DNA from: a virus
Taxonomy: Duplodnaviria > Caudoviricetes
IMG/VR virus record: IMGVR_UViG_3300025543_000209
Location: 1-24,167 of that record
Reading direction: 5' to 3' (one strand)
Length of the DNA: 24,167 nt
Both the position numbers and the translations under genes were made by a program. The notes below the pieces were generated by a model. The model did no database searches and was not told the DNA's origin. It saw only the letters and a list, made by a program, of their open reading frames with translations. Of this stretch, positions 10,336-17,585 are shown in pieces (the first letter of the stretch is position 1; each line of letters starts with the position of its first letter).

Positions 10336-10623
10336 CTACTCGTTTACAAATTCATACTCGTTACCAAATGCACTAACCGATACCAATTGGTCCGGGATAA
10401 TCTGCATATACCGCTTACGATTGTTGTCCCAGATCAACCAGTTGCTTTCCTTGATGGAAGACTTGCCTCCCTTAGTAAACTTAGCAACACCCATACGGCC
10501 ATTGAAACTGGTAACCTCACCATTCTTTTTGATGTAGGTGCCTCCGAAGATTCTACCACTTGATTGTAGTTCTGACTTGAACTCTGCTGCGTAACCTTTA
10601 GTTACTGATACTTTAGTTTTCAT
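10336..10623 (-). CDS. SH3/Sm-like beta-barrel protein (WYL_2/DUF2693-like)
   Basis: G.IF...YIKK.G....N.R.GV....KGG...WD....Y..I pattern. Confidence 0.55.
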   Translation of the reverse strand: MKTKVSVTKGYAAEFKSELQSSGRIFGGTYIKKNGEVTSFNGRMGVAKFTKGGKSSIKESNWLIWDNNRKRYMQIIPDQLVSVSAFGNEYEFVNE

Positions 10624-10904: not shown

Positions 10905-10935
10905 CAAAAGTAATATAAAACTTCTAACTTGCAAA
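10905..10935 (-). promoter_or_regulatory. Consensus Bacteroidota primary-sigma promoter driving the leftward arm
   Basis: TTTG-N19-TACTTTTG, an exact -33/-7 match, with upstream A/T tracts. Confidence 0.8.
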
Positions 10936-11201
10936 CACTTCTGTTAAAAAGTCTAAAAAAAAATAATTTCCCCAGATTCTTCGGGCATTCGCGTTATGAA
11001 ATTTTCCAAAAAGTCCCCCAGATTTTTCGGCTTTCGCGATTTATTCGTATGACGTGCGCGTCCGTCACGCGTGTGGCGATTGCACCGGTGGACCCGGTAG
11101 GTATTTTCACTCAATTTAGCCCTAATTCGGGGACGATCAACTAAGCCCGCAGGCCAGTGCTGGCAAGGGATCCGGACTTTTTCACTCGATAAAACACTGC
11201 G

Positions 11202-11260
11202 AAAAATAAAAATATTTTTGGTCCCTATGTCGGGGATATTCTTTTATAGTATAATATTAC
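11202..11260 (+). promoter_or_regulatory. Probable rightward early promoter region
   Basis: A-tract, TATTTTTG (TAnnTTTG) at 11213-11220 without a spaced -33; TATAAT at 11250-11255. Exact element unresolved. Confidence 0.3.
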
Positions 11261-11317
11261 ACCAACAAACAACCGGCAACGATGCCGGGCCTTAATTAAT
11301 TTAACACCTTTTTAAAA

Positions 11318-11590
11318 ATGAAAACTTCAAACAGAATTACAAAAATTTGGACCAGCGAAACAGGACGCACAGAGTACGAAATAGGACGCGCGCACATTCA
11401 AAGCAATGACCCAGAATTAACCAACTACTTTTGGCGTTGTACCGGTGACGAGTACGAGGTAGGCGGCGAGCTTCAAATCTGGAAAGAGCCCAACGGCGTT
11501 AAATGTGTTAATGATTTCGATGGCGCCTTTGATCTACCCAAGGGAATTAAAACGCACTTAATTAATAAAGGCGTAGAGGTAGACTTTTAA
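11318..11590 (+). CDS. Early hypothetical protein
   Basis: A-rich leader (ACACCTTTTTAAAAATG) preceded by a GC hairpin. Confidence 0.7.
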   Translation: MKTSNRITKIWTSETGRTEYEIGRAHIQSNDPELTNYFWRCTGDEYEVGGELQIWKEPNGVKCVNDFDGAFDLPKGIKTHLINKGVEVDF

Positions 11591-11640
11591 AATAAATATA
11601 AACCCGGGCCGGATCCGTCCGGCCCTCAATACCTTAAACA

Positions 11641-11763
11641 ATGAAAACAAACAAACTACAAACCAGCACAACAAAACAAAAGAAAAAAAGCGAAGGCGGA
11701 ACGCTGGAAGCCCTCGCAGTAATTGGCGCCCTTTATTTGCTCGCGTCCTTTATTTTACGTTAA
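11641..11763 (+). CDS. 40-aa single-pass membrane peptide
   Basis: Hand translation MKTNKLQTSTTKQKKKSEGGTLEALAVIGALYLLASFILR; same ACCTTAAACAATG leader as the gene at 12050. Confidence 0.7.
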   Translation: MKTNKLQTSTTKQKKKSEGGTLEALAVIGALYLLASFILR

Positions 11764-11782
11764 CCCTTAAAAAGAAAAAAAA

Positions 11783-12031
11783 ATGTTTAAAGACTTAACC
11801 GAAATAGACACCGGCGCCGGGCTAATGATCAACGGCGAAGCCGAATTCAACGCCGCAGAATTAGACTATCTAAACGGCACCGGAATATCGGAAGGCTGGA
11901 CCGCTAATATATATGGCCTTATTATAGACGTAAACGGCAAAGAGTATACAATACCAGCCGCGGCACTCAGTCCGGACCTATTGAAGGCGCTAACCAGCAA
12001 CGCAGAAACAGAGCTAAACAATTACTACTAA
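11783..12031 (+). CDS. Early acidic hypothetical protein
   Basis: A-rich leader; D/E-rich. Confidence 0.7.
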   Translation: MFKDLTEIDTGAGLMINGEAEFNAAELDYLNGTGISEGWTANIYGLIIDVNGKEYTIPAAALSPDLLKALTSNAETELNNYY

Positions 12032-12049
12032 AATTTAAAACCTTAAACA

Positions 12050-12895
12050 ATGATCAACTTTGAAGAATTAGCCAACGCAGTAAACCCGAACCCGGGTCAA
12101 ACATTAAAAGCAGCACCAACGCCACCCGCGTATACGATCCCGGCCAAACTACTGAGCAAGGGAACAACCAACGCTAAAACAAGCAAAAACGCCCTTGAAA
12201 CCTTTATACTATATATGAGTCCAGCGGCCCAAAATAGTAAAGGCGCCGACCTTTGCCCGTTTCGTAGTAAAGGATGTACGGCCGCTTGTTTATACACTGC
12301 CGGCCGCGGAAAGTTTAACAACGTCCAACGCGCCCGAATGAATAAGAGCGAATACTTTATAAGGGACAAAAAAACGTTTTTAGCCCAGTTAGCGCTCGAA
12401 CTAATAGCAATAAACAAAAAGCAGTTAAAGAAGGGAACAAAGGCCGCAATCCGTTTAAACGGGACCACAGACGTGGACTTTTTGTACCTTCTTAAGAATC
12501 GCGCCGGACTTGACGCCCTGCAATTGGAAGGCCTTGTATTTTACGACTACACCAAAGACCCGCACCGCGTTAAAAGGTACGCCGGGACCAACTACACACT
12601 AACATTTAGCCGGGCCGAGGATAACGAACCGCAGGCCCTCGATATCCTAAAAAATAGCGGCATAGTTTCGGCCGTCTTCGCTGAGAAATTGCCCCAGCTA
12701 TATAAAGGCTTCGAGGTTATCGACGGCGACGCGTCCGACGATCTTATGATTAAAGCAGCGGCCGCCGTTGGCGTACTCAAACGCACCCGGAAAGGTAAAG
12801 GTATTATATTAGGACTAAAGGCCAAAGGAGACGCTAAAAAGGACCTTAGCGGCTTCGTAATTACCTCACACCTAAACACCGGCGGCAATGCATAG
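12050..12895 (+). CDS. GP88-family, radical-SAM-like Fe-S protein
   Basis: CPFRSKGCTAACLY (Cx6Cx3C), RLNGT.D, FYDYTK, YTLTFS, VIDGD..D and LKAKG.AKKD..GFV motifs. Confidence 0.8.
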   Translation: MINFEELANAVNPNPGQTLKAAPTPPAYTIPAKLLSKGTTNAKTSKNALETFILYMSPAAQNSKGADLCPFRSKGCTAACLYTAGRGKFNNVQRARMNKSEYFIRDKKTFLAQLALELIAINKKQLKKGTKAAIRLNGTTDVDFLYLLKNRAGLDALQLEGLVFYDYTKDPHRVKRYAGTNYTLTFSRAEDNEPQALDILKNSGIVSAVFAEKLPQLYKGFEVIDGDASDDLMIKAAAAVGVLKRTRKGKGIILGLKAKGDAKKDLSGFVITSHLNTGGNA

Positions 12896-13082
12896 TATTT
12901 TCGAAACGATCGAAGCGCGGCCCCTCAAAGTAAGAGAAGGAAAGCGCGCCCACTGGATAAAGACCAACGGCCAGCGTATAAACTTAGCCAGCCGAAACCA
13001 CCATAGCAGCCTAACCAACGGCCGGACCTTTATATTCTCAGAGGATCGGCGACACGTTAAGCAGTTAAAAAACTACATATAA
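12888..13082 (+). CDS. Early hypothetical protein
   Basis: Overlaps the GP88 stop; followed by the terminator. Confidence 0.6.
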   Translation: MHSIFETIEARPLKVREGKRAHWIKTNGQRINLASRNHHSSLTNGRTFIFSEDRRHVKQLKNYI

Positions 13083-13109
13083 GCACCTGTAAAGGATCAA
13101 CACCAAAGG

Positions 13110-13139
13110 AAGGGCACCCAATACGGGCGCCCTTTTTTT
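13110..13139 (+). terminator. Rho-independent terminator of the early island
   Basis: AAGGGC-A-CCC/GGG-C-GCCCTT stem followed by a T-run. Confidence 0.75.
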
Positions 13140-13210
13140 ATACCCTTAAACGGGACCAACTGAAGAAGGAACGACGGAAGGAAAAGAGGAAAAGAGGCCC
13201 GAGAGTTACG

Positions 13211-13247
13211 CCCCCCGGCCCCACCCCTTACAACACCCCGGCACCCC
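13211..13247 (-). other. Putative G-quadruplex / i-motif tract
   Basis: Five runs of at least 4 C on the + strand, separated by 2, 1, 8 and 4 nt. Confidence 0.5.
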
Positions 13248-13463
13248 TTCACCGGATCCACACCCCCAGCGGGCCAACTAAGGCCCCCACATTGGACCAA
13301 TGGAACCCCTTATATACTTAGTGCGGCCAAAAATGTAGGACCGACAAAGGACCCCCGGCCGATAGTGACCGGACGAAGGAGGCGAAGAGATAACTTAGCC
13401 CTCGGTGTCCGCGGGGAAGGTGTCTATGTGAATGCCAAACCAAATGAACTTAAAATATTCCCT

Positions 13464-13597
13464 TGTATATACATAGTATGTATACCTCTGTATATATATA
13501 CTCTTAGGAACTTAGTATATACTAAGGAGAACTGTATACTCTCCCCTTTAGGGGGAGTATATAAGGGTATACTAAGTGTCCACACTAAGTATATACA
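13464..13597. repeat. AT-rich nested palindrome, element B (related to element A)
   Basis: 14-bp outer inverted repeats with 1 mismatch; perfect palindrome CTTAGTATATACTAAG at 13511-13526; hairpin 13535-13561. Confidence 0.8.
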
Positions 13598-13719
13598 GGA
13601 AGTTTTTTAAGGCGGATATATTAATGAATAGATTTATTCACTATCTTGTAGATTCATTTAGAGCCTTTCTAAGGACTCCAATTAAACACTTCTATACAAT
13701 CGTACCAAAAGACCAAGAT

Positions 13720-14016
13720 ATGTCCTCTAAAGAACTCCTAATAGCTTTATTGAGCGGAACAATGCCTAAAGGTGATACCAAATCAGAGATGTTTAAGTTT
13801 TACAACTCTATGGTAGGGAAGAGTAAATACTTTCCAAAGAGTGAGAATCCTAAGACTGCGTGTGGTAGTTGTATCCAAAGGGTGAAGACTTCTATTTGGA
13901 AATGGTATCACAGTGATGAGACAGCTCCAACCTTTAGTGAGTTGACTTTTACGGGTAGATTAGGCGCACATAATATTCCATTATACACACTTACAGATGC
14001 CAGCAAAAAGAAATAA
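13720..14016 (+). CDS. Hypothetical protein with CGSC motif upstream of terminase
   Basis: PKTACGSCIQRV; ATG 13720 preferred, 13624 possible; the 13576 start lies inside element B. Confidence 0.6.
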   Translation: MSSKELLIALLSGTMPKGDTKSEMFKFYNSMVGKSKYFPKSENPKTACGSCIQRVKTSIWKWYHSDETAPTFSELTFTGRLGAHNIPLYTLTDASKKK

Positions 14017-14449
14017 TAGCGGTAAAATAGTTAAGGGCCAAGGTGCGGAACTAACAGATCTCCAGAGTAATTTTATTGATAGGATAGCTGAAGAGGGTAT
14101 GGAGGCATCGAGTAAGATAGCTCGGGAGCTTAATTATACTTCCTACTATCGGGATAGGAGAACCGTAGGTACTGCGTTCCATAGAGAGCTTATGGCTATT
14201 GCCAACGCGGAAATGAAGAGTATTGAAGCTGCTAAGGGTACAAATCTTACGGCATTGATTAAGATACGAGATGTAGCATTGTCTAACGGGGATACAAAGG
14301 CAGCGATGGAAGCCATTAAGATTATCAATGATATGCAAGGATACAAAGCTCCTACGAAGGTCCATCAGACGAAGATAGACGTTAAGGCAACTATAGACCT
14401 TACTGCTCCGGATCAAGAGGATGAGGATACTGATTATATTGATGTTTAA
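13997..14449 (+). CDS. terS: Terminase small subunit
   Basis: LT..Q..F HTH start, helical core, A...GD..AA..A......G..AP; TAATG-coupled to the large subunit. Confidence 0.7.
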   Translation: MPAKRNNSGKIVKGQGAELTDLQSNFIDRIAEEGMEASSKIARELNYTSYYRDRRTVGTAFHRELMAIANAEMKSIEAAKGTNLTALIKIRDVALSNGDTKAAMEAIKIINDMQGYKAPTKVHQTKIDVKATIDLTAPDQEDEDTDYIDV

Positions 14450-15699
14450 TGGAGATAAAGTTATACAACCCTACAAAGCCTCAGAAGGATTTCTTGAAGA
14501 TCATCTACGAAGAGGAGCCTTTTATAACCTTAGCCGCTATGGGGCGGCAAACGGGTAAGACCTTTGCTATGATGAACGATGCGGTAATGAGAGCCTTGAA
14601 TAACAAGAAGCACCGTATGTTCTGGGTAAGCCCTATACAGGAACAGGCCAACAAAGTGATGAAGGACATTGAGGGGATGTTTAGTAACCACCAAGAGTTG
14701 TTTGAGCAAATCATAACGAGGTTTGATAGAAAGCATAACGAAATATACTTTTACAACGGTAGCTTTATTAAGTTCCGATCTTCCGAAGCGGGGGATAACC
14801 TTCGTGGTGCGACATTGGATTTTATCTACATTGATGAGGCTGCCTTTATCAAGGAGGCGTTTATCAACGAGGTATTGCTGCCTATGGTTACCCGGACCAA
14901 CGGTAGGGTAGTGATGAGTAGTACCTTCAATGGTAAGAACTGGTACTGGGAATGGTACCAAAGAGGACTTAAGGAAGATAACTTTAAGCAGATAAAGTCT
15001 ATTAAGCGGACATATCTGGACCTCAACGACCATAAGGTCGAGGAGACGGTACTGGGTATACGCAAGAGTATGACTAAGGCGCAGTTCAATCAAGAGTTTT
15101 TATGTAGACCCGTTAGTGCGGATGCCTTGTTTTCCGATATTGAGGATTCCATTACTAAACACCTACCTCAAGAGTACGAGCGGGTATACATCGGTATGGA
15201 TATCGGGGTAGCGCAAGATTATACCGTGCTTACCGCAATGACAGAAGATTATAAAGTTATTGATATCGATAGGTTCAACTTTAAGGAGCAAGGGATGGAC
15301 TCTGTAGAATTCAAACAGCGCATTAAAGACTTTTACCTTAAACACTTTGATAAACTTGCGGCTGCATACTTTGAGGTCAACAACAACGATTTACTCTTTG
15401 ATGAGATTACCGATGATGACAGGATGTACAAGATGATACCCTTCCAAACGACAAGCAAGAGTAAACCAGAGATAATCAAGAACCTTATTAAGCTTTTTGA
15501 AGACCATAAAATTAAAATACCAGACTACGATGTGTTGGTAAAGGAATTGTACGATTACAAGAGTAAACGTAATCCTGTTACGGGAAACCTACAGTTCTCC
15601 AATACCGAAGGAAAGCACGATGACTGCGTGATGAGTCTTGCTATCGCAGCATACTGTGCTGTAGAGGAACAAGACGGTGGTATAACAATGTTCTTATGA
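14449..15699 (+). CDS. terL: Terminase large subunit
   Basis: Q motif, Walker A GRQTGKT, LRG, Walker B YIDEAAF, ST.NG.NW, F.QEF, nuclease GMDIG...DYT and HDDCVMSLA. Confidence 0.95.
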   Translation: MEIKLYNPTKPQKDFLKIIYEEEPFITLAAMGRQTGKTFAMMNDAVMRALNNKKHRMFWVSPIQEQANKVMKDIEGMFSNHQELFEQIITRFDRKHNEIYFYNGSFIKFRSSEAGDNLRGATLDFIYIDEAAFIKEAFINEVLLPMVTRTNGRVVMSSTFNGKNWYWEWYQRGLKEDNFKQIKSIKRTYLDLNDHKVEETVLGIRKSMTKAQFNQEFLCRPVSADALFSDIEDSITKHLPQEYERVYIGMDIGVAQDYTVLTAMTEDYKVIDIDRFNFKEQGMDSVEFKQRIKDFYLKHFDKLAAAYFEVNNNDLLFDEITDDDRMYKMIPFQTTSKSKPEIIKNLIKLFEDHKIKIPDYDVLVKELYDYKSKRNPVTGNLQFSNTEGKHDDCVMSLAIAAYCAVEEQDGGITMFL

Positions 15700-16859: not shown

Positions 16860-17585
16860 ATGGATAACTTAGAGAAACGTCTTCGTATCATATTAAGTGA
16901 GAAAACCCCTCTTAAAGCGACATATCAACAGCGAGGGGCTTTACAATTTTACCTACAAGACCAATTAAACAAGGGTAAGGTTATATCTCTGTTAAAAAGA
17001 AACCTCAGCGGTCCTCAGAACAAAGAAGGTAGGCCTTATGACCATAGGGCTACAGGATTTTTAGAGAAATCTATAATGCCTGCTACTGATGGAAACCAAA
17101 TCTGGACGAAGAGGTTCTTAAGGGTAAAGCTAACCGGAGACAGGTATTTAGGCTTAGGTATAAGCTTGGATGAATTCTCCGCTAAGATTGAAGCTGCGAG
17201 CTACGCACAAAAACTTAGTGACGGATTCTCTTCCTCTGGAGTGACTCAAGGAGAGATTGCAAATTGGATCTACGCAAAAGCAAGGAGAAACCCGGGTAGT
17301 AGATGGCAGGCAAGCTACAGAAGAAAGGATGGCTACAAAACCTTTGATTACTACGGGGATCAAGTAAGCTACTCTGTAGCTAAGTATATAGCAAAGCCGA
17401 TAACCCAAAAGCTGCAAGTAAATGGATATGCTGGTAGTGGCTGGATGGAATTCCTTCAAGGTCCTGCGGGACTAAAGGGAGCATTAACCCGTGCTTACGG
17501 TAGGTATCTAAAAGATTACCCAGCGTATACTTGGGCTACGATGACGTATAGAATTGAACAAATGTTAGAAAAACTCGAGAAATGA
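16860..17585 (+). CDS. Putative neck/tail-completion (virion morphogenesis) protein
   Basis: Basic; ATG.L..SI, YA....DG, I..WI..K pattern. Confidence 0.45.
   Translation: MDNLEKRLRIILSEKTPLKATYQQRGALQFYLQDQLNKGKVISLLKRNLSGPQNKEGRPYDHRATGFLEKSIMPATDGNQIWTKRFLRVKLTGDRYLGLGISLDEFSAKIEAASYAQKLSDGFSSSGVTQGEIANWIYAKARRNPGSRWQASYRRKDGYKTFDYYGDQVSYSVAKYIAKPITQKLQVNGYAGSGWMEFLQGPAGLKGALTRAYGRYLKDYPAYTWATMTYRIEQMLEKLEK

Follow-up and report, generated by a model that had tools for sequence, protein, structure and literature searches.

We analyzed a 24,167-nucleotide stretch of phage DNA (the window; positions 1 to 24,167 of IMG/VR record IMGVR_UViG_3300025543_000209), in which an island of about 2.5 kb upstream of the terminase genes, encoding a protein of the GP88 family, was dense in certain restriction-type palindromes and depleted of other short words. 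Judged from its sequence, the window is likely part of a siphophage of Bacteroidota. Such a host is suggested because a motif (TTTG, 19 nucleotides, TACTTTTG) matches what we take to be the Bacteroidota promoter consensus, and because the leaders are A-rich; that the leaders are A-rich and lack Shine-Dalgarno sequences had been noted in the first-pass annotation and was confirmed. The sequencing runs that covered the window best were freshwater or aquatic, and a near-identical record (G001) of 35,968 bases was 95% complete. In the window annotation, the leftward genes were those of replication and lysis, and the tape measure gene was at 17582. The features in and around the island were as follows.

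10905..10935, minus strand: match to the Bacteroidota-type promoter (TTTG, 19 nucleotides, TACTTTTG), directed leftward, away from the island
10943..13416, plus strand: compositional island, early-gene block (segmentation and word counts)
10962..11030, plus strand: two 23-nucleotide direct repeats at the left edge of the island, a candidate terminus or packaging element
11213..11220, plus strand: weak match to a -7 promoter element (TAnnTTTG), a candidate promoter of the island genes, with no clear -33 element
11318..11590, plus strand: open reading frame (ORF) of 90 amino acids, no family
11641..11763, plus strand: ORF of 40 amino acids with a hydrophobic C-terminus, no family
11783..12031, plus strand: acidic ORF of 82 amino acids, no family
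12050..12895, plus strand: GP88 (PF17338, phrog_1617; profile match), 281 amino acids
12888..13082, plus strand: basic ORF of 64 amino acids, no family
13110..13140, plus strand: hairpin and T run resembling an intrinsic terminator
13140..13419, no strand: non-coding, site-rich stretch
13198-13239: C-tract within the non-coding stretch, G4-like on the minus strand
13454..13600, no strand: AT-rich palindromic element just beyond the island, a candidate packaging or terminus element
13997..14449, plus strand: ORF of 150 amino acids, putative terminase small subunit by position, with no family match
14449..15699, plus strand: terminase large subunit (phrog_2, E = 2e-47)

Among the five rightward ORFs of the island, GP88 alone matched a family in Pfam and PHROG scans, and no named anti-defence family was detected in these scans. 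The 90-amino-acid first ORF was missing or swapped in strain variants (11301-11595). In relatives, letters in the stem of the terminator-like hairpin changed with the pairing kept, and a conserved element ending CCGCGGGG stopped exactly at the right edge of the island in all five aligned sequences.

Segmentation placed sharp island edges at 10943 and 13416. Between 11040 and 13430 (2391 nucleotides) we counted 27 CCGG, 25 GGCC and 13 GGWCC, exactly as in the first-pass annotation, together with 24 GGNCC, 15 GCGC and 15 CGCG. The other 21.8 kb of the window contained 20 CCGG, in line with the earlier estimate of about 20 in roughly 22 kb, 24 GGCC, 23 GGWCC, 31 GGNCC, 28 GCGC and 13 CGCG. The GC fraction was 0.475 in 11040-13430 and 0.388 elsewhere. 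Mononucleotide shuffles gave expectations of 7.2 (CCGG), 7.3 (GGCC) and 4.0 (GGWCC), and none of 500 shuffles reached the observed count of any of them. The earlier claim that the excess goes beyond GC content held under dinucleotide shuffling for CCGG (15.1 expected, observed count reached in 1/500), GGCC (13.8, 0/500) and GGWCC (4.0, 0/500) but not for GCGC (14.2, 233/500) and CGCG (15.5, 305/500), for which these shuffles accounted fully. GATC was also in excess (12 observed vs 3.5 by dinucleotide shuffles, 0/500). When the island ORFs were reshuffled with their own synonymous codons, a modest coding excess remained for CCGG (14 vs 9.6, p = 0.03), GGCC (15 vs 10.0, p = 0.035) and GGWCC (7 vs 2.7, p = 0.003); the codon usage of the rest of the window would predict 2.8, 2.3 and 1.2, respectively. 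Much of the coding excess is explained by the codons of the island, which are themselves shifted to GCC, GGC, CGC, CCG, ACC and AGC; its AAG and GAG codons are shifted towards AAA and GAA. The enriched words were CCGG, GGCC, GGNCC, GCGC, CGCG, GCSGC and GATC. Eight palindromic words held approximately 36% of the G+C of the island and 8% of that outside, and the clustering of strong with strong and weak with weak bases (G/C by G/C, A/T by A/T) had a ratio of 1.23 in the island vs 0.97 outside.

The depletion in the island was as strong as its enrichment. The first-pass annotation had overlooked GGAG (observed/expected ratio, O/E, 0.12 in the island vs 1.23 outside) and GATG (0.16 vs 1.38); with ATGG, AGAT and CAAG, these words stood at 0.12-0.43 of expectation in the island vs 1.06-1.72 outside. 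AGCT occurred 3 times in the island vs 103 outside, and GCWGC (3 vs 35) pointed in the same direction without passing the test. CATG, CTAG and CCWGG were absent from the entire window. Three classes are visible. Words absent everywhere (CATG, CTAG, CCWGG) would be targets of live restriction enzymes that nothing blocks. Words tolerated in the backbone and purged from the island (AGCT, GGAG, GATG, ATGG, CAAG) would be read by systems that are blocked only after early expression, and words that are rare in the backbone but crowded in the island (CCGG, GGCC, GGNCC, GCGC, CGCG, GCSGC, GATC) would be methylated by the host.

GP88 was found in 269 phage records. We grouped 142 GP88 loci into 51 clusters below 80% identity, of which 44 had enough flank and 7 lacked it. 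The 44 were examined in fixed windows around GP88, and a 21-locus set was examined with fitted island limits; L028, in which no island was seen, belongs to the former set and was excluded from the latter. The first-pass annotation had pointed to the GP88 regions of related phages as the place to look for the same bias, and clustering above the flanks was indeed found in 43 of the 44 non-redundant loci. At least one significantly favoured palindrome was present in 33/44 islands vs 3/42 control windows, and palindromes made up 71 of 264 top-ranked words in islands vs 23 of 252 in control windows. The vocabulary was lineage-specific and included A/T-containing classic Type II sites. L071 had CCWGG 26 in the island vs 3 in the flank and GGWCC 12 vs 0, with CCGG, CGCG, GCGC and GATC at zero throughout; L072 had GATC 18 vs 10 and CTAG 9 vs 1; L011 had CCGG 32 vs 6, yet GCSGC 0 vs 6. 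CGCG was bimodal over the 44 loci: up in 18, zero in both island and flank in 17 and down in none. Only AGCT (4 loci), GANTC (2) and TGCA (1) were ever down.

Favoured words, which were picked from the same data in which they were then counted, reached 15.4 per kb in coding DNA of islands vs 1.9 in the backbone, and 11.9 vs 1.3 in non-coding DNA. At L169, ten GATC fall within 130 non-coding bases; this array follows five copies of a 14-nucleotide repeat at the left edge of the island (L169:4920-5350). The GP88 genes of the window and L011, with 61% nucleotide identity, contain 35 and 28 sites and share only 5 positions; therefore, density is kept while places change. Islands with favoured palindromes also occurred without GP88 (L240, L243, L277, L278, L245, L253, L260 and L269; for example CGCG 13 vs 2 and GCGC 24 vs 17 in L260, and CTAG 11 vs 28 in L269), and several sisters on the tree of the terminase large subunit gene (terL) showed little signature. 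The clustering signature was present in Limnohabitans phage DC31, and Riemerella phage RAP44 had no island.

Three profiles (PF00145, PF01555 and phrog_757) detected no phage methylase in G001, other methylase families not having been searched genome-wide; therefore, any marks would come from the host. Among relatives, phrog_757 was found in 12/45 records and PF00145 in 7/45, and the association of methylase genes with favoured words was weak, for CTAG (p = 0.026) as for CGCG (p = 0.032, from two loci; both uncorrected). Short methylase-like genes (phrog_757) lie near the island at L067:11920-12552, L072:6885-7721 and L078:15521-16138, and L067, L072 and L006 all favour GATC and CTAG. L178 and L179 (in the records of L154 and L140) encode phage C5 methylases that are 63% identical, and the islands of both phages favour CGCG.

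The early genes of the island form an exchangeable block, which sits just upstream of the packaging genes. Terminase adjoins the island in most annotated relatives, and in sisters that lack GP88 an island likewise precedes terminase; GP88 was present in 5/21 terL sisters, a distribution that requires it to have been gained or lost three times or more on the terL tree, and the content of the cassette of small early genes varied among close relatives. One group (complete records of 55-61 kb) has groEL in the place of terminase: in L059, L060, L062, L028, L076 and L077, groEL is directly beside the GP88 block, upstream of GP88. The cassette can be inverted, because L267 (from the record of L127) has GP88 and terminase on opposite strands.

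The first-pass annotation had proposed a terminal or first-injected segment. With genome ends placed by inference, the island is probably such a segment, as suggested by its position beside terminase and by T7-like phages, in which the signature begins right after terL (HTVC120P, Bylgja and TRX32-1) or fills the first 2.5 kb (HTVC134P). Further, among cultured phages, the records of T7-like and other pelagiphages and roseophages have GP88 0.3-1.5 kb from their start, and those of cluster A mycobacteriophages have it approximately 2 kb from the right end. HTVC120P and Bylgja both carry a CCAGG array just after terL, as about 13 ACCAGGCA-like units (L081:41812-42184 and L336 at about 4.5-5.5 kb, respectively) in a presumed terminal repeat zone. 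The suggested resemblance to the two-step injection of T5, or a long terminal repeat, found no support: depth over the island was not doubled in four runs (contig means were flat, from libraries of unstated type). At base level there was no pile-up of contig ends at the island edges, and contigs crossed both; the phage end could lie at either edge. A pile of reads at 13209 was rejected as a genome end, as it consisted of very few start places with 77 Hi-C reads in all. The window terL shares 24-27% identity with cultured relatives, which is too distant for packaging typing.

GP88 matched PF17338 with 107.4 bits (curated cut-off 24.4). C69, C76 and C80 were invariant in 114 GP88 sequences (L067 is absent from this alignment), with a CX6CX3C spacing that is non-canonical for radical S-adenosylmethionine (SAM) enzymes. 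The structure model had a pLDDT of 84.7, and its 19 best VIA-align rows (Z 4.4-5.8) were all radical-SAM enzymes, with spore photoproduct lyase and QueE as top fold matches; the former (Z 5.8, root-mean-square deviation 7.0, 195 aligned) was tied with others. A search of PDB sequences returned chance kinase matches only, and an Atlas search returned only GP88 clusters. GP88 is thus predicted to have a radical-SAM fold with a partial barrel, an assignment of which we found no report by title-level searching of the literature on GP88. Methylase genes adjoin GP88 in Sansa, HTVC134P, L067 and L072. In T3, the same genomic slot is reportedly occupied by an anti-restriction gene, that of SAM lyase (10.1101/2023.02.27.530186). 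T7 carries gene 0.3 (Ocr), also anti-restriction, in this leading slot (PMC12455610). The fold of these proteins is unlike that of GP88, whose activity is putative; the slot is shared, and the link to SAM would be too if GP88 is a radical-SAM enzyme. The predicted fold and the slot suggest that GP88 may be an early anti-defence enzyme linked to SAM.

Restriction-methylation is probably the selective force on the island. Our preferred reading, which we favour at slightly less than even odds, combines a purge with selected, host-methylated self-marks on a first-entering early block; whether positive selection for methylated sites took part is evenly balanced. The early-gene block beside the packaging genes would enter the cell first. 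Words like the restriction targets of adenine-methylase systems would become scarce in it, palindromes that are probably methylated by the host would pile up, and the leading DNA would be densely self-marked on arrival, before its anti-defence genes, perhaps including GP88, act. For a leading block to hoard Type II sites, methylatable DNA should bring a benefit at entry, which in turn implies a defence that reads methylation density. The likeliest reader would be a defence that loads on DNA as it comes in and senses methylation irrespective of sequence, such as DrmAB of DISARM, whose ATPase activity is lowered on methylated DNA with no sequence requirement (PMC9142583); a DISARM-like reader is nevertheless unlikely.

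The strongest rival, which we consider rather unlikely, is that the island is purely a residue. A purge against many asymmetric adenine-methylase systems (Type I, IIG, III and BREX-like) would force G/C and A/T into separate runs, and palindromes without a live enzyme would rise passively, methylated or not. The island ORFs were fitted with exact codon models. For the window, a model of GC content and a penalty on strong/weak junctions predicted CGCG (12.1 vs 12 seen) and GCGC (12.1 vs 13) and fell short of CCGG (8.2 vs 14), GGCC (8.9 vs 15) and GGWCC (2.9 vs 7). Further in line with a residue, GAG, CAT, GAT and CAG contexts were depleted across the 21 loci, an IIG-like vocabulary of 6-mers was lower in 18/20 islands, all-G/C non-palindromic words were up as much as palindromes, penalties alone raised GATC in L072 from 6.3 to 9.9 of 13, and pooled 4-mer palindromes stood at 0.99 of second-order Markov expectation. 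However, 24 word penalties raised CCGG in the window to just 4.6 of 14 and GGCC to 3.6 of 15, an all-trinucleotide model predicted 2.3 GATC vs 6 seen, GATC (1.69) and CCWGG (2.04) exceeded second-order expectation, and some non-coding arrays are made of GATC. Under the junction model, single words in relatives far exceeded prediction: CCWGG 16 vs 2.7 in L071, CGCG 19 vs 4.3 in L140, GCGC 32 vs 11.6 in L096, and also GATC 13 vs 5.6. Therefore, a diffuse purge explains much of the window, and word-specific preference is clearest in relatives.

Of the three explanations offered in the first-pass annotation, residue of purging covers GCGC and CGCG fully and approximately 60% of CCGG and GGCC in the window under the junction model; the excess in relatives, being lineage-specific, is best matched by a methylated self-signal; and a decoy for restriction-modification enzymes gained no support. 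Bacteroidota methylome motifs (from 29 rows of table S4 of PMC4752239, and from PMC11837570) were compared over the 21 loci: nine palindromic motifs had an O/E of 1.34 in islands vs 0.44 in flanks and were higher in 19/21 loci, whereas Type I motifs had 0.68 vs 0.91 and IIG/III motifs 0.79 vs 1.03. In Flavobacterium psychrophilum (PMC11837570), methylases have been assigned to CCGG, CCNGG, GCSGC (predicted) and CGCG, and GATC has an orphan methylase.

Several results weigh against our preferred reading. Because the two-parameter junction model fits, most of the window excess needs no selection on palindromes, and penalising all other words is formally inseparable from rewarding the favoured ones, which were, as stated, chosen in the data in which they were counted. 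The 20 asymmetric Bacteroidota motifs were only mildly depleted (ratio 0.76, with 8/40 letter-permuted sets as low), and the eight IIG/III motifs occurred in the window as often as expected (19 vs 19.1). Neighbouring favoured sites did not shield purged words, which were not spared near them (0.375 vs 0.420, p = 0.006). The signature was absent despite GP88 in HMO-2011, CRP-143 (by the clustering measure), Sabertooth, Sansa and L028. The end block of the cultured phage P12024S, which lacks GP88, showed plain avoidance (GATC 0 vs 82, CTAG 0 vs 143, GCWGC 0 vs 67), and GANTC, which we take to be the conserved SAR11 methylation site, was not enriched at the end of HTVC120P (3 in 3.7 kb vs 61 in 38.6 kb). 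The VIA-align Z scores of GP88 were just 4.3-5.8 (root-mean-square deviation 4.4-7.0), and Foldseek returned no match for the model at E 0.001. Further, if GP88 drained SAM like the T3 lyase, progeny would be under-methylated, which conflicts with a self-mark.

Import from a donor of such composition, or codon adaptation for fast early translation, with methylation playing no role, is improbable. The first-pass annotation had raised the case of a donor whose whole genome has this profile, and phages with a signature over whole loci (9-22 kb: L190, L191, L192 and L197) do exist; GP88 has been gained or lost repeatedly, and a laminin G lectin tail module with the signature has moved between phages. 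However, their favoured words differ: within the few candidates compared, 4-mer rank correlations with the window island were 0.26-0.52 for these four loci and 0.11-0.31 for four samples of Bacteroidota metagenome-assembled genomes. The absolute zeros of the backbone are also zeros in the island, sites turn over in place, the signature tracks position with or without GP88, and the excess is equally strong in non-coding DNA. In conjugative plasmids, the leading region is likewise first-entering, GC-richer, compositionally distinct and codon-adapted, but according to PMC13478746 codon adaptation is the signal there and 4-bp palindromes show no clear change, whereas in the island specific palindromes are up several-fold, outside genes too.

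It is more improbable still that the sites form a methylation-gated packaging or terminus signal. The pac site of P1 consists of Dam-methylated GATC repeats and is Dam-dependent, and by analogy the methylase-site clusters near terminase genes, the GATC array at the edge of the L169 island, the CCAGG arrays after terL in HTVC120P and Bylgja, and the conserved element at the right edge of the window island could be read in this manner. However, pac is one short cis element with one word, whereas the sites here have an even spread through 2-3 kb of coding DNA, with up to six or seven words per island, and the purged words would be left unexplained. A role of the island as a dense landing field for GP88, which would modify DNA at or beside methylated sites for protection, is very improbable: the best fold match acts on DNA, and methylase genes adjoin GP88 in the four phages named above, but enrichment occurs without GP88 (L260, L269) and GP88 without enrichment. 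A last rival is biased very-short-patch repair, by which T:G mismatches arising where phages recombine would be turned into cytosine-methylase sites by mutation, with no selection. Such repair is expected to raise CCAG and lower CAAG and GATT, as seen beyond second order in pooled islands, but is hardly credible as the cause. It was largely refuted by a test of neighbour words: the C-to-T neighbours of CCGG, GGCC, CGCG, GCGC, GGWCC and CTAG were not specifically depleted, and GATG, a transversion neighbour of GATC, was hit harder than GATT. The shift of AAG and GAG codons to AAA and GAA also speaks against it.

Returning to a purge combined with self-marks, the textbook expectation is avoidance of restriction sites, strongest in first-injected DNA, and a hoarding leading block reverses it. 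In T5-like phages, restriction sensitivity is set by sites in the first-injected DNA (PMC10644984). The first-step-transfer region of T5 and BF23 resembles the island as a terminal early block with uncharacterised early genes whose sites decide sensitivity, but sites are harmful there, whereas selected palindromes are enriched here; that region is 9.7 kb long vs 2.5 kb, and neither a long terminal repeat nor two-step entry was indicated for the island. Site scarcity of the T5 type was seen for AGCT, GGAG and GATG and was reversed for CCGG, GGCC and GGNCC. In Autographiviridae, including Murciavirus, sensitivity likewise acts through sites in the early-injected region, where restriction drives selection at a sub-genomic scale, on a leading block that is variable, but this concerns avoidance of one Type I motif in one host, and the parts of PMC12455610 covered describe neither a compositional island nor an enrichment of sites. 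GP88 of T7-like pelagiphages sits in that variable block; the present phage, unlike these Autographiviridae, is a siphophage with putative ends. Site avoidance in leading DNA is thus already known, and for site enrichment there we found no report in mostly title-level listings; related literature includes PMC11602122 and the MANTIS preprint (10.64898/2026.09.23.753747).

The signature is real and general across many aquatic phages; as a leading-region adaptation with an inverted component it would be surprising if confirmed. That the first-entering end of many aquatic phages is a methylation passport of host sites, with GP88 disarming SAM-dependent defences, is conceivable, though doubtful; if true, the vocabulary of an island would reveal, with nothing but sequence at hand, how the host methylates its DNA and from which end injection starts. 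Under a plain purge too, the signature points, in uncultured phages, to probable genome ends and to cassettes of anti-defence genes, host restriction motifs are split into blocked and unblocked classes, and GP88 gains a predicted fold and a testable role. Cultured pairs exist in HTVC120P or Bylgja on Pelagibacter, and in P12024S on Nonlabens as an avoidance control.

Some further features were observed. At the record end of P12024S (L322:21400-23701), a small-gene block with classic leading-region avoidance adjoins the DNA methylase gene of the phage. The lectin (laminin G) tail module of record G002 (L085:6234-10702) shows the same clustering, with an excess of CGCG and GCGC. The right edge of the L071 island (L071:3540-3660) carries phased A-tract repeats like bent-DNA packaging elements. 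Contigs from other phages join the window at 13715 and 13843 with different upstream sequence, and so the gene at 13576 is common to more phages. Small proteins of the WYL_2/phrog_2267 family are encoded within several islands (L055:9419-9730, L049:9639-9932 and L029:2553-2834), and in the window one lies at 10336-10623, just left of the island.

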